DNA from: a virus | Taxonomy: Duplodnaviria; Heunggongvirae; Uroviricota; Caudoviricetes | Direction: 5' to 3' (one strand) | Virus record (IMG/VR): IMGVR_UViG_2698536657_000010 | Location: 1 to 25,564 of that record | Length of the DNA: 25,564 nucleotides | Shown here: positions 12,001-18,000 of the stretch, piece after piece | Layout of the letters: every line of letters starts with the position of its first letter | How positions within the stretch are numbered: position 1 is the first letter of the stretch | Made by a program: the position numbers

Positions 12001-15000
12001 ATCCGTATATATTCGTGATAATCCAGCCGTTCAAAATTCTGATTAAATTCTGCGATACAGACAGAACGTGTCTGATTATCCAGGCGGCGATACACCACTT
12101 TATCAGCAGAACAAAAACAAATTTTCACCGGATAACCAGCGGCATCAACATACCGCTTACCACGTTGGATCAGAGAGAACATGTATTTATCCCCCAGCGG
12201 CAAATTGAGTACACAACCAGCACAATCGCCAACGCAATACCAACATTTGAGAACACTTCAGTCCAGGTCATCGTAAAATACTCTCTGTGTTTATCAGCCC
12301 ATTCTGTTTCAGATACTCCATCGCCGTATCAGGTAGCTTGCTTGATTTATTGACGCTTTTTAATGAACTGGCTAATCGCTTAACCAACATAGTTAATTCA
12401 CTCACCTGATCGCCTAATGCTGGATTATTGTCGCTTTTTCCCGGCAATATGTGCTCTCGACTGGATTTCCAGAATATCCACGCCAAATCCACATTTGGAT
12501 CCCGGTAATTCATCCCTTCGTTAGCACGAAGCAATAATGTTTCATGGTTTTTATCATCTGCATGGAACCTGATAAGTGTTTCAAACTGTTCGCGACCGTC
12601 ATCAGGGATTACCTGAGAGTTACCCGTTAGCGCATTCTGCTCCAGTGATGCTTTTACAAACCAGGATGCCTGGACTATAACCCCATGGATCCAGCGCAAA
12701 TCAGCATCGAGATCCTTCTTCTTCATCTTTTCGCCACTTAAAGCCTTGCTTATGTGGCTGCGCACCAGGTCTTCATGTAACTCCTTCGCCTCCTCAATGG
12801 TGAAACCGCCAGGCAGACTAGCCTGAGTTATCGGAGAGTTGCCAGCCTTGCGCATGGCAATCTCCATGATTTCAACCATATCCCCTGGTGGAATTTTACA
12901 AAGTTGCCCAATACATTTCTGCTGCCTGGCATATTCGAGAATGTGCTCCAGTTTGGTTCGATTAATCATTATTTATCTCCCTGAAGCATGGCTGCGCGGC
13001 AGGCTTCATCAACCATAACTTCTACGTTTTCGAGAAGTACGTAACTGTACTGCTGCCCGCTAACCCATTCTTTTCTGCGAGGTAATGCGCGTGGGTCCGC
13101 TACAATAGTTCGCAAACGTTCCAGAACAGCTGGCACTATCGGCGCTGGCGGGGCGGTGTAAAGTGGAACAACTCGCCCTCCCCATTGCTTAACACTACTC
13201 TCAGCGAACACTAAATGCTCAGTCCGATAATACCCAGGGGCATCAATATCTTTTCTTTCGCTATCCCACATGTAAACCACCGATTCTGCTTCCAGCGATG
13301 CCAGTGCGATAAGCGCCAGCTCACGAATTTCACCGCCGTCTATATCGTCAATGTCATCGCGGCCAGAAATGTTAGCCAGCCATTGCAGTCGCTCTTTGGT
13401 AATAGTGGTCATCTCACTCTCCTTCTATGCGAATACCAGCAGCAGTCAGTGCTGCATTGACCTCATCAGCGTAGTAGTACGTTAATCCACTTGATGATTT
13501 AGCCAGCTTGAATGGTTCTGGTAACTTCACTGTGCGGGACTCCTGCTCGTCGATACGCTGTTTTGCTTCCTCCAGTTCATCCAGCAAATCAGCGATAATA
13601 TCCACTTCACGATGACGGATTTCTCGCTTAAACGCAGACAAAGCTGCATCACAATCCTGCTCAGCGTTTGGACTGTCTGGTTTCTCCTGATACCACGCCA
13701 GCATCGACCGATAGTTTTGTGCTGCCTCACGCAATGCCTGATAGTCAATCTTGCTCACTGGTTGCCTCCTTTGTGGATCTGCGCTGCGATGCACGAAAAA
13801 AAAGACTCCCGCGTATGACTGTTAAGAGCTGGTGCGAACGCCGCGTTAAGAACGGCAGCATCACAGCCGTCATTGATATAGAGCGCAATTTTTTCTCCAG
13901 GCGCGCTTTGGCTTCCTGCAACTGCATACCCCGGCACGCACGCGGGATATACTCAGCAATTTGAGCGATAGATTTTTCGTTCTGTTTAAACATGCTTCAC
14001 CTCGACAGGCTTGATGGTGTCGATCAGTAGTCGGCGGCGCGTATTTTCTGCAAAGTGGCGGCGTCCGGTTTCTTTGTGGTAAAACTCGTTTTTGTCGACG
14101 ACCCACATCCGCTCCGTCTGGTGCAGTTTTTTTACCTGCGGACCGTCTTTGGTGATCACGATGCCGGTATGGGTTTTTACGATTGTCATGCCACCACCTC
14201 TTCGAATTTCAATTCCAATTGTTCACCCCAGATTTCACATGACTCTGAACACGAGCCGGTATCGAATCGCCTGGCCTGCACCATCGCCTGATAGTTAATC
14301 TTCATCATCCTCACCCCACTCATCACAATAAGCTTCAACCGGAGTTTTTCCTGCTTCATAGTCATCACGCCATGCTTCAGCATCGGCGGCACTTCCACCG
14401 CGTAACTCTGCATAGTCCATTAACAGTTCATGCCATTCTTCAAAACTGGCGTTATATTTAGTTGAACCAAAATCAGCCATTTTGTTCTTCCTCTTCGTCT
14501 TTTATTTCGTGATATGAGTAATTGCAGTAGTTAAAGAAAATTTCTTTTGCTTCGTCATGAATTTCATCAGGTGTTGCGTCATCGTCCACTTCGAATACAT
14601 CCTCGAAACCTCCACCGGCTATTCCCGTTTCAATAATTATTTTGAACTTTCGCATTTCACTACCACCCTGCCGGGCGGTCTCCTGATGTTCTGAGGGTGC
14701 AGGAATCCCTCCTGTTAAGGATTAAATTTTATTTACAGTGCTGATTTTAATTATTCAGTTCTGGATTATGCTTTCTCTTTCACCTGCCGTAGTTCCTGGT
14801 AATTAATTTCGCTCACTGGTTGCCTCCTGGAAAATAACCGCATGTCCCAGTTTCTCCGCCAGTGCCAGTTCTGCCTTAGCGCCTGCCGATCGCTGCCAGC
14901 CTTTCAGCATATAAACCGCATCCACACAACGAATCATTGCCATGCAAATATCCATGTAATGTGGCTGAGTCAGCCCGTCCGGAAGTACTGCGGGATTTAA

Positions 15001-18000
15001 TACGGTATGCCCTTCCTGTTTCAGTGCTTCTTCCGCCTTGTGAAACGCCTCACGGTTGAAATTTTCATATCCCGTCATCGGACCGGCGATATAAATTCTC
15101 ACCCTCACTCCATCACCTCCTGAAAATTCCCCTGACAGAACGCCAGTACACGCTGCATGACTTCGCTGTTTCGGCACTCACTGCAAATTATGTTCTGATG
15201 CCTGTCATAGCGGCGTATTTCTCCGTCTGGTAACTTTCGAATCAATGTCTGGTCAGTTGTTTTCTCCGGTGTCTTACGCCATACGCGATACACCTGTTCA
15301 GATGCAAAAACACCGTATTTACCGGACATGTATAAATCGCCACAAGCCAGTACATCCACAAGGCAACGTCTGACTGAATGCCAGTCTGCTCCCGTCGCTC
15401 TCTCCAGTTGTGATATCGTCATGCGTTCATTTTTGCGTACCAGCCCGATAATTCGGGCCTTCAGTTCTTCACGCTGTTCGTGTGTAAAAGGTTTCGCCAT
15501 AAGCGCCTCCGGCAATCACTTTTCCGACACAATACGACTGGATGAATCGACAATCTGTCGAACAATATCCTGGTGCTTGTTCAGCTCCCGCAGCGCGGCG
15601 CAGACACGCTCCCACTTCTGAACCTGACCTTTTGCCCTGCGCAGCTCGCGGTTAGCCACATGCAGCGATGGTAAAATCAGACCATCCGGATGTTTTCTGG
15701 TGAACGACGGCTGTGACTGCACTGTGACCGCCACACTTTCCGTTTTTATTTCTTCCTGTGTTTCCGCTTCCCGGACCGGTAACGCAACACCTGCTGGCTG
15801 AGGAAAGGCTTTACCATCGGTTTCCGTTACCGATGCAGCTTCCGGCTCTGCCGGTAAATCAGCGCCCGGTATGCAGTAACGAAATTTACCGCCCTGATTC
15901 ACGCGAATCAGACGCCCTTTGCTGATTGCCATGGCCAGCGATGAATTCGCCCGGCGGGAGGTAATCCCGAACATCAGTGCCAGCTCATCCGCCGTTTGTG
16001 GGCCATGTTGTTCAATCGCCTCAATCAGCATTTGCGCTGTCACTTTCGGTACCGGTGACACCGGTTCACTTTCACCAGCCTGAATCAGCCACCACATCGA
16101 ACCCTTGTTATCCGCTTCACCGCGGCGCTTCAGTTTCCACAGTTCGTTGACCGCATCTTCACGGCTGATTCCAAGGCGGGCCGCCACTACCTGTGAAGAG
16201 GCTCTTTTCAGTGCTTTCAGTGCATCAATCACACTTTCCATTTTTACCTCCTGTATTTCTCTCTTCCTGCGCAGACCTGAAACCATTCAGTTGCTTTACC
16301 AGTCCTTCTGTTTCCAGCCGTTTCAATATTTCAACCACCGTCGCCGGTGACATCTGCAACGTCTCAGCCACACTTCGTGCGGTATTGCGTCCTGATGTCA
16401 GCAGGAATTCCAGTACATCGCATTCTTCTTCACTTAACTTACTCATGGCTGACCTGCTCCCCTCCACTGATAGATGAAAGCATGGCAATAACCGCCCCTG
16501 TAAAACGAGCCTGCGTTGAGCGGATTTCTTCCAGCATTACCTGCTGCTGACGCAAAATATCCAGCAACGCTCTGACATCCACATCCGCCTCATCACCACC
16601 CCTGAAATCTTCCTCATGAAGAAGCGCTTCACTGTCATCAAAAACATTTGTGGTCGCGTCTTCTGATGTCGCCCCTGGTGAACGGTCATCATTATCATCT
16701 GTCTGCGGTGCTGCCAGCTCACCGTTCATCTCTTCCGTTGACTCTTCAGTGTCAGCATGAACAGAGGGTTTAACCGCTTTCATTATTTTCCTGACCTCGT
16801 CAGCGGTAACTTTGTGCTGAACATTCACAACGCCCCGTTCCGCCACATCCCCGGTAGCCTCTCCCGCCTCTCCATAAACGGCACTGTATGTGTTATCCCC
16901 CATAACTGCACCGCAATCCGGGCAATGACCTCCACCGGATTTACCACATCCACCACAACCATTTTCCCGTGCTGCCTCCGGTTCCGTGCCTTGCACTTCT
17001 GGTTCATTTTCCTGCAATTCCGGCCCTTCCGTCACAATATCTGGTTCGGAATGGTTGGCAGTCTCCACATTCTGGTTTGCTTTTTCCGACTCCTGGCTCG
17101 TATCACAGGCAGAGTCCTGAACAATGGCGTTTGTTTCCCGCGTCTGTATTCCCGGAACCCAATTCTGACCATTAGGGTCACTGATCCCATCAACATATTC
17201 ACCACGGGAAGCAGCCAGTAATTTATCGGCATCCGGTATTTCAGCAGATGACGTCGCTTTGCTTTCGTCCACTTCAGCCGCTCCCGTCTTCCGCAAGTCG
17301 CAGTCGCTCTGCGACGTGGTGTGACTGTTCTCAATCTTCCTCATACGTTTTCCTGCCTCGCGAACTCTTTTCAGATTATCTTCATGCCCAGGCACAGAAC
17401 CACATACAAGCGGTTCTGCCCAGTCTGGATCACGAACACCGCGCACTATAAGAAAGTTTTCAATCCACTCCCTCCGCGCCTCTGCTGCCCCTGTTGCGAT
17501 ATGTGACGGCGCAAGACTGACCATGTCAAAAATGGTCTTTCTGTCCCAGTTTTTAATCCCTTCCGTAACACCAAGGGCTGTCGACCATGCACGCCATCTT
17601 TCATCATCGTCAGCCATCAGTTTCTTCGCGGAATCCATCACCGGACGTAAATCATGGCAGTCCGCACCAGGACATAAAGCAGCAGCGATTTCATAATTAA
17701 TCGTTCTGAAGGTTGGTTTTTCACTGCGGCGCGGTCTTTCCCCTGTGACTGGCGATTTCTCCACAACTTTCTCCTGCGCTTCCTTTTTATTTTCAACGCG
17801 GGATATGCGGTTTCCGTTACACCACTCTTTTGTCAGCAGGCCTCGATCGGTATAGTCAGTGTCTAGGTATGCTTCGAAAAAAGCAGTCATGAACCCCAGA
17901 CTGGAATTAACGGGATTAGGGAAAACTTTGTCAGTGTCGCGCACCAGTTTGTGAAGGTCGCGAATCTCCAGCGGGTCGAGCAGCTTTGTGTTGTGGGAAA

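Follow-up and report, generated by a model that had tools for sequence, protein, structure and literature searches.

The closest described counterpart of the two genes considered here is the LygF-rac19 pair of phage Rac-SA53 (KU052037). The window analyzed in this work, the whole 25,564-nucleotide (nt) stretch of Caudoviricetes DNA in IMG/VR record IMGVR_UViG_2698536657_000010, carries the same two genes in the same order, with the same 4-nt overlap and 89% DNA identity. RefSeq annotates such pairs as "DUF977 family protein" followed by "DUF4406 domain-containing protein"; the pair is covered to 80% or more in around 490 complete Escherichia coli genomes, and the DUF977 and DUF4406 proteins of the window are 97-99% identical to database entries. 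The gene pair is already known as sequence and annotation, not as a system, and as a pair it matters little: hundreds of E. coli genomes, and Rac-SA53 as well, carry annotations for the two genes in this arrangement. The setting differs: the Rac-SA53 and RefSeq pairs follow ydaU/ydaV or O/P replication genes, whereas the pair in the window lies between a RecE-N-terminal-like gene and ead/Ea22-like genes. Of modest interest are the link of DUF977 to Ren of phage lambda, a classical gene, and the standing of DUF4406 as a large phage-borne family with a Ser...Glu signature like that of DNPH1 and MilB. We read DUF977 and DUF4406 as two independent accessory ("moron"-type) cargo genes that adjoin in a tightly packed early lytic operon, and we put the probability of this reading at roughly 70%.

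A sequence-only reading of the window had placed two minus-strand genes at 14803..15500, and that is exactly where they lie. The upstream DUF977 (Ren-like) gene occupies 15105..15500, from an ATG at 15500 to a TGA at 15107-15105, and encodes 131 amino acids (aa). The DUF4406 gene occupies 14803..15108, from a GTG at 15108-15106 to a stop at 14805-14803, and encodes a 101-aa protein with a minimal form of the fold of nucleoside 2-deoxyribosyltransferases (NDTs) and DNPH1. The reported overlap of this GTG with the stop of the upstream 131-aa gene is confirmed from the sequence: the 4 nt GTGA at 15105..15108 on the minus strand are common to the TGA of DUF977 and the GTG of DUF4406. A consensus Shine-Dalgarno sequence, AGGAGG, can be read on the same strand at 15116..15121, 7 nt upstream of the GTG and within the last codons of DUF977 (Q-E-V); the whole junction on the minus strand is AGGAGG(15121-15116)-TGATGGA-GTGA(15108-15105)-GGGTGAGA. 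An alternative in-frame GTG at 15102 would give a 99-aa DUF4406 protein without the overlap, and distant DUF4406 homologues mostly begin with MKIYIAG, which matches the position of this second GTG. We accept the first GTG (15108) as the start because the AGGAGG-N7-GTG spacing is retained in both upstream contexts (DUF977 or a different helix-turn-helix (HTH) gene) and because the PGAP annotations of all relatives inspected have the 4-nt overlap. A longer open reading frame (ORF) of 124 aa from a GTG at 15177 was rejected, since the homologues are 95-101 aa long and the Pfam domain begins at residue 4 of the 101-aa form.

The sequence-only reading also raised the possibility that the two gene products work as partners, a view that the comparison across genomes does not support: the genes are frequently unlinked in E. 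coli, among viral contigs, and at species-level loci. Of 5,426 complete E. coli genomes, 1,330 contain DUF4406-like DNA (1,651 places) and 4,154 contain DUF977-like DNA (7,505 places), so that at most 22% of the DUF977 copies can have a DUF4406 neighbor. Neighbors were counted on samples, namely 30 evenly spread DUF4406 places and 7 DUF977 regions taken down the ranking. Fourteen of the 30 DUF4406 places adjoin DUF977, 12 adjoin a gene annotated as "DNA-binding" or "hypothetical protein", and 4, which are divergent copies on plasmid-sized records, have no neighbor under the match. The three of the 12 alternative upstream genes that were inspected encode a PHROG 323 HTH protein of 93-105 aa that is unrelated to DUF977 and ends in the same GTGA. 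Seen from the other side, DUF4406 is the next gene after only 1 of the 7 sampled DUF977 genes, the other 6 being followed by DUF551, S-adenosylmethionine (SAM)-dependent methyltransferase, QueH, SIR2-family, or hypothetical genes. Among 80 close viral-contig relatives, DUF977 lies upstream in 50 and the other HTH protein in 29. When one genome per species is taken, DUF977-like sequence is present at only 3 of 80 DUF4406 loci and absent from 77; one of the 3 is an E. coli-like contig, and the other two match only the conserved C-terminal Ren/DUF977 motif, in one case at the end of a longer two-winged-helix protein. The species-level neighbors upstream of DUF4406 are diverse replication, recombination, and "nin"-type genes, with RusA, PAPS-reductase-like, and RNase T-like genes confirmed by Pfam and DnaB-like helicase and C5-methyltransferase-like genes recognized by eye. 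Even a single prophage backbone, that of the window, occurs with three slot states: DUF977 and DUF4406 (the window), HTH and DUF4406 (SCU-171), and neither (SCU-111). Of the E. coli relatives of the pair, the nearest (98% identity; OkiPb01712, locus L164, 9406-9801) carries, by its annotation, a DUF977 pseudogene interrupted by an internal stop, with the overlapping DUF4406 gene intact.

These data bear directly on a dedicated, obligately co-expressed two-protein system in which a DNA-binding protein would direct a nucleotide- or base-modifying enzyme to its target or regulate it. The GTGA overlap and the shared operon are real, the junction is identical in the 50 viral-contig relatives and the approximately 490 complete E. 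coli genomes, and DUF4406 in Escherichia-type prophages is always preceded by a small HTH protein; set against these are the 22% ceiling on DUF977 copies, the roughly one-half of DUF4406 copies that stand behind another gene, the 77 species-level loci that lack DUF977, the pseudogene beside an intact DUF4406, the three slot states of one backbone, and an overlap that is generic (see below). Such a system is most improbable in our estimation, and unlinking has already largely refuted it. The two families do not co-occur and stay adjacent as the genes of a conserved two-gene system would, and we infer that the two proteins do not interact physically. Two observations count against full independence. 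DUF977 does adjoin roughly every second DUF4406 gene of E. coli, with an identical junction, and a facultative DUF977-DUF4406 interaction might exist in that Escherichia subclade; moreover, both alternative upstream genes encode small HTH proteins, and this could hint at a looser "HTH plus DUF4406" pattern within Escherichia.

The junction, too, is shared with other genes. Further 4-nt overlaps are found in the window at 11179-11182 and 18550-18553, and overlaps of 1 and 8 nt occur in the same operon. Among close viral-contig relatives with enough upstream sequence, the 4-nt overlap is present in 79 of 79, whatever the upstream gene, and at species level 35 of 79 DUF4406 genes share 4 nt with an unrelated ORF upstream. 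The 3' ends of DUF977 genes that precede other cargo also carry CAGGAGG-N7-(G/C/T)TGTGA, with the GTG overlapping the stop, and the 5' end of DUF4406 keeps GTGAGGGTGAG behind a different upstream gene. Since either gene keeps AGGAGG-N7-GTGA next to other partners, this junction is a generic boundary between modules and not the mark of a two-protein system, and it fits the general tight packing of the early operon. Such a junction would give compact co-transcription and possibly some termination-reinitiation. Neither a sigma-70-like promoter nor an intrinsic terminator was predicted on the minus strand within 14200-16600, so co-transcription of DUF977 and DUF4406 is likely; an Rfam scan of 13500-16600 gave no match. 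DUF4406 has a strong Shine-Dalgarno sequence of its own, which means that its translation need not depend on DUF977, and translational coupling is possible but not obligatory. The overlap had been taken to imply obligate co-expression; co-transcription survives from that claim as the likely case, and "obligate" falls to the frequent unlinking and to the separate Shine-Dalgarno sequence.

The slot after the Ren-like DUF977 gene is itself a variable cargo site in E. coli prophages (L168-L173, L163), holding DUF4406, DUF551, SAM-dependent methyltransferase, QueH, SIR2-family, or hypothetical genes, and several DUF977 3' ends keep AGGAGG-N7-GTGA whatever the cargo. With its SIR2, QueH, methyltransferase, and DUF4406 genes, this slot could be mined for defense and counter-defense genes in Shiga toxin (Stx) and Rac-type prophages. 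A Ser/Thr kinase and PP2C phosphatase pair lies near the DUF977 pseudogene in the E. coli OkiPb01712 prophage.

The assignment of the downstream gene to DUF4406 passes a Pfam hidden Markov model (HMM) search, in which PF14359 is matched at E 3.4e-37 and 127.2 bits against a cutoff of 22, with residues 4-93 on profile positions 2-91 of 91. The family comprises 18,040 clusters at 50% identity (E <= 1e-3). PHROG 355, annotated as "nucleoside 2-deoxyribosyltransferase", matches the protein at E 6e-48. An AlphaFold2 (AF2) model built on 35 homologues shows a flavodoxin-like fold of four strand-helix units, the strands being parallel, and has a predicted local distance difference test score (pLDDT) of 88.8. 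When this model was compared with the PDB by Foldseek, 30 of the 32 top matches were NDT, MilB, or DNPH1, and the other two were the unnamed conserved protein 7m5h. The matches include the NDTs 2a0k, 6qai, and 8pqt, the cytidine monophosphate (CMP) and hydroxymethyl-CMP N-glycosidases MilB and BcmB, and human and rat DNPH1, at a probability of 1.00, template-modeling (TM) scores of about 0.65-0.75 (0.63-0.75 for the DNPH1 and MilB/BcmB group), and approximately 20% sequence identity. The NDT-like fold proposed from the sequence is thereby borne out, at a TM score of about 0.7. In structure, NDTs (PF05014; 2a0k, 6qai, 8pqt) match best (E 5e-5 to 1e-3, 18-27% identity), and the N-terminal (K/R)IYxAGP strand motif of DUF4406 aligns to 6evs. 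The DUF4406 protein is much shorter than the NDTs, however, its PF05014 score of 17.2 bits lies under the Pfam cutoff of 28.8, and it has an invariant Ser at the phosphate-binding position of DNPH1 and MilB, in a pocket that NDTs lack.

Conservation and motif spacing single out a putative active site in the segment S74-A-G76-A77-K-A-E80 (14869..14889, minus strand), with the Ser as the candidate phosphate-binding residue and the Glu as the candidate nucleophile. Among 81 species-level DUF4406 sequences, S74 is kept in 80, G76 in 79, A77 in 80, and E80 in 79; Y6, Y51, and W71, like these four, are kept in at least 79. The near-invariant positions of the alignment are Y6, I7, A8, G9, P10, G13, N18, F22, P39, A40, Y51, L68, W71, S74, G76, A77, E80, and A84. 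In the model, a Tyr lies in strand 1, and E80 falls within the predicted helix 75-87, at the start of helix 3. DNPH1 uses E104 as a nucleophile that forms a glycosyl-enzyme intermediate and D80 as the acid/base, and it holds the 5'-phosphate with S98 and with S128' of the partner subunit; MilB keeps S97 and E103, and NDTs are without the phosphate pocket (PMC10603095). DUF4406 has the same fold as DNPH1/Rcl and the MilB/BcmB N-glycosidases, with the strand-1 Tyr, and its Ser-to-Glu spacing of 6 equals that of S98/E104 in DNPH1 and S97/E103 in MilB (PMC10603095).

Taken with the model and the analogy to DNPH1 and MilB, the motif suggests that DUF4406 probably works as a small N-glycosidase of the retaining type, with 5'-phosphorylated (deoxy)nucleotides as its substrates. 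Glu80 would be the residue that attacks C1' of a substrate resembling a (deoxy)ribonucleoside 5'-monophosphate, with Ser74 holding its 5'-phosphate and Tyr6 lining the pocket for the sugar; Asp53, which is invariant in the enterobacterial clade, could serve there as the general acid. The reaction would yield a free base and (deoxy)ribose-5-phosphate. The analogy to DNPH1 and MilB suggests that the substrate could be a non-canonical or modified nucleotide met in phage replication. The Ser...Glu signature thus offers a cheap and concrete biochemical hypothesis, base release from 5'-monophosphates.

Several points weigh against this chemistry. The equivalence of residues among DUF4406, DNPH1, MilB, and NDTs comes from motif spacing and predicted secondary structure and topology, not from an explicit structural alignment. 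At the level of sequence, similarity to DNPH1 and MilB is undetectable, and DUF4406 proteins are about 100 aa long where those enzymes have 130-175 aa. PF05014 membership fails, as given above; a PDB sequence search with the DUF4406 profile returned no NDT-family match; and the DUF4406 sequence finds among PDB sequences only a marginal N-terminal match, to 6evs, and no solved family member. An hhalign comparison of the profile with DNPH1 gave no alignment (the numbering of the human DNPH1 sequence was checked against PMC10603095), and for this reason the DUF4406-DNPH1 residue equivalence stays inferential. D53, which we compare with the general acid/base Asp of DNPH1 (D80) and CtNDT (D62), is present in only 40 of the 81 species-level sequences, and 25 of the 81 have Arg at this position. 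The C terminus is a further difficulty. The DUF4406 protein ends about 8 residues past its last strand, with residues 97-101 disordered in the AF2 model, and lacks the C-terminal extension that in DNPH1 and NDTs completes the active site of the neighboring subunit; a second phosphate ligand, whether the S128' that the helical extension donates in DNPH1 or an Arg of the MilB R23 type, was looked for in DUF4406 and not found, and there is no equivalent extension. The substrate and the chemistry could therefore differ. Our literature search found no functional study of DUF4406 or DUF977.

The same evidence must be weighed for a true NDT that carries out base exchange, or for a non-catalytic nucleotide-binding protein or sponge, in place of a nucleotide hydrolase. 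In NDTs, the position six residues before the Glu is an Asp, which contacts the 5'-OH. DUF4406 has at this position the invariant Ser (80 of 81), as do DNPH1 (S98) and MilB (S97) for phosphate binding, and the Glu, Tyr, and Ser, all near-invariant, speak for catalysis over passive binding, as the subthreshold PF05014 score argues against a true NDT. On the other hand, NDTs are the top structural matches, PHROG 355 and some NCBI records carry the name "nucleoside 2-deoxyribosyltransferase", the general-acid Asp is not family-wide, and a phage NDT with a role in dA depletion has been reported for Z-genome phages (bioRxiv 10.1101/2025.10.22.683976). We consider base exchange or passive binding unlikely.

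A toxic role can be drawn from the same fold. DUF4406 would then be an NDT-like effector that depletes nucleotides or NAD, as in retron Ec86, for abortive infection or superinfection exclusion encoded by the prophage, and the upstream HTH protein would act as its antitoxin or repressor. Retron defense does include NDT-like effectors by which adenine derivatives are depleted (PMC11482910), the slot after DUF977 elsewhere holds defense-like cargo such as a SIR2 family protein, and Ren-like proteins are annotated as exclusion-related; yet a search of PADLOC defense models with the DUF977 and DUF4406 proteins gave no match to either at E <= 0.01, DUF4406 stands in a lytic early operon and not in a lysogenically expressed moron cassette, no promoter of its own is predicted, and the upstream partners are highly diverse across taxa. 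The Ec86 effector has in common with DUF4406 an NDT-like fold, which in the retron is used in phage-host conflict (PMC11482910), whereas DUF4406 is phage-encoded, has a place in a lytic operon, and has no reverse transcriptase or noncoding RNA nearby. The toxin-antitoxin form of this proposal was rejected because an intact DUF4406 gene beside a pseudogenized DUF977 argues against such a dependency, and the toxic effector as a whole seems to us very unlikely.

A bolder version of the N-glycosidase reading would make DUF4406 a widespread minimal DNPH1-like nucleotide N-glycosidase, expressed by temperate phages early in lytic growth, that destroys non-canonical or defense-generated nucleotides, with the slot after the Ren-like gene as a cargo hotspot with a conserved Shine-Dalgarno-N7-GTGA. 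This combination is distinctly unlikely as it stands. If it were true, DUF4406 would be a new class of phage counter-defense or pool-sanitizing enzyme, for which the candidate substrates are deaminated or otherwise modified deoxynucleoside monophosphates and nucleotide-analogue or signaling molecules.

Fusions of DUF4406 may provide a Rosetta-stone hint of a nucleotide pathway, though they point to no definite function. DUF4406 is joined to a C-terminal DUF6378 (Pfam E 3e-20) in contigs of Planctomycetota/Phycisphaerae metagenome-assembled genomes (L057, L060, L063, L070, and L073, at approximately 4001-4636), and PHROG 12019, "MazG-like pyrophosphatase", contains a DUF4406-like segment. The function of DUF6378 could not be established, as its PHROG labels are inconsistent and it has no PDB match. 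A neighboring gene that looked MazG-like by eye was not confirmed by Pfam, and no second Pfam domain recurs in 35 long DUF4406 representatives.

The upstream protein belongs to DUF977 (PF06163; Pfam HMM, E 7e-67; 224 bits, with the cutoff at 22.1; residues 1-127 aligned to profile positions 1-134 of 134) and is a longer homologue of phage lambda Ren, as judged from profile comparisons. PHROG 142, "Ren-like exclusion protein", matches it at E 4.8e-44, and hhalign of the DUF977 profile against Ren gives a probability of 96.2% and E 2.6e-9 over 89 aligned columns, which take in the HTH part and the C-terminal motif ECRxSxxMxRVL. Nearly all of the 520 DUF977 homologues found are from Escherichia, Shigella, or Salmonella; the gene is the one called LygF in phage Rac-SA53. 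The role reported for Ren is to protect lambda from Rex exclusion. No rexAB-like genes were seen in the window.

The winged helix proposed for this protein from the sequence is present at its N terminus. Residues 7-65 (15306..15482, minus strand) are modeled by AF2 as H-H-H-beta-beta with a pLDDT of about 90, against 78.7 for the model overall, and all top Foldseek matches in the PDB are winged HTH (wHTH) domains (GntR, IclR, MarR, and Z-alpha), with Z-alpha superposing on the DUF977 winged helix at a root-mean-square deviation of 1.6-2.2 Å over about 60 residues. This domain is the variable part of the family alignment. The most conserved block is the motif N-I-I-C-x-E-C-R-x-S-x-x-M-Q-R-V-L-x-F at residues 103-121 (15138..15194, minus strand), which is common to lambda Ren and in which AF2 confidence is lower; hhalign aligns it to "NLVFKECRQSAAMKRVLAVYG" of Ren, pairing NIICSECRNSEVMQRVLAF with NLVFKECRQSAAMKRVLAV. 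The protein had also been singled out as Cys-containing, and this does not hold as a functional feature: of its five Cys, only C106 and C109 are invariant in the family, whereas C45, C52, and C122, and likewise H101, vary. Four conserved metal ligands are not present in the family alignment. A zinc-binding reading was rejected, given that only C106 and C109 are invariant and that C109 is the only Cys aligned with a Cys of Ren.

Lambda Ren (NP_040633; PHROG 142) and DUF977 have a similar place, since in a lambdoid early operon each is the first of the small genes behind the replication/DUF1627 block, and Ren likewise overlaps its own upstream gene, P, by 4 nt. The differences are that the window protein has 131 aa where Ren has 96, with an inserted block at about residues 60-95 that includes LPDGEIRRY; that it has CxxC where Ren has a single Cys; and that its gene is part of a P2-type early operon and distant from the replication gene. 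The Ren sequence itself, unlike the window protein, reaches no Pfam family.

The window as a whole is an E. coli Stx2-family prophage, integrated beside cpxP/cpxR/cpxA (22706-25424). Its backbone (6300-22600) is a hybrid in which a P2-like switch and replication part is joined to lambdoid DUF968/Q/stx/lysis modules. The P2-like lysogeny switch consists of an HTH repressor (21143-21451, plus strand), int (21485-22519, plus strand), and cox (20734-21018, minus strand), and the P2 gpA-type replication gene lies at 9260-11182 on the minus strand. A single one of the 5,426 complete E. coli genomes matches 80% or more of this backbone, at 90% identity, and the records of the phage collection each cover 22% of the window or less. 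The minus-strand operon runs from cox through the DUF977/DUF4406 region and the P2-type replication gene A on to Q. By analogy with P2, DUF977 and DUF4406 would be expressed early in lytic growth. The prophage also has an Ash-like gene and a gene with an Rv2179c-like 3'-5' exoribonuclease domain, which PGAP calls a 3'-5' exonuclease in relatives. With the pair and the gpA-type gene go a small wHTH gene, DUF1627, DUF7167, and ead/Ea22-like genes, and further parts of the prophage are DUF968, Q, HicAB, tRNA-Ile, stxAB, a nanS-p-like esterase gene, and lysis genes.

The usual upstream neighbor of the slot is the DUF1627 (YdaW-like) gene, here at 15516..16286 on the minus strand (PF07789, E 3e-82). 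The order of DUF1627 and then the slot is also found in Rac-type prophages, and in the canonical ones the DUF1627-slot-cargo block stands behind the replication genes, in the position of lambda Ren after P. Downstream of DUF4406, after a 147-nt gap, the next gene is DUF7167 (14473..14655, minus strand; PF23768, E 1.7e-13), which is the downstream neighbor in three other loci as well (L081, H71, and H41). Within this gap, the approximately 60 nt at 14708-14770 are 94% identical to sequences of E. coli plasmids of about 90-100 kb and of phage vB_EcoM-Ro157c2YLVW, in which the stretch falls inside genes annotated as hypothetical proteins; a mosaic boundary common to these elements is the probable explanation.

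Three other features of the prophage were noted in passing. A 704-aa ORF at 16439-18553 (minus strand) has only an N-terminal Exonuc_VIII (RecE) domain (residues 30-195), behind which comes a long low-complexity region rich in acidic residues; its equivalents in related prophages are incomplete RecE pseudogenes according to PGAP, and the ORF is intact in the window. The Shiga toxin 2-family genes at 4927-6162 (minus strand) comprise stxA, whose product starts with MKCILLKW and ends in ...RRAHSLNTSGE, and stxB, of 87 aa and ending in AEVQFN. The stx-lysis region shares only about 87-88% DNA identity with phages of types Stx2a and Stx2c, a level that points to one of the less common Stx2 subtypes. 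Between Q and stx, a HicA/HicB toxin-antitoxin pair lies on the opposite strand (6409-7003, plus strand), and a tRNA-Ile gene (6254-6331, minus strand) stands just upstream of stxA.

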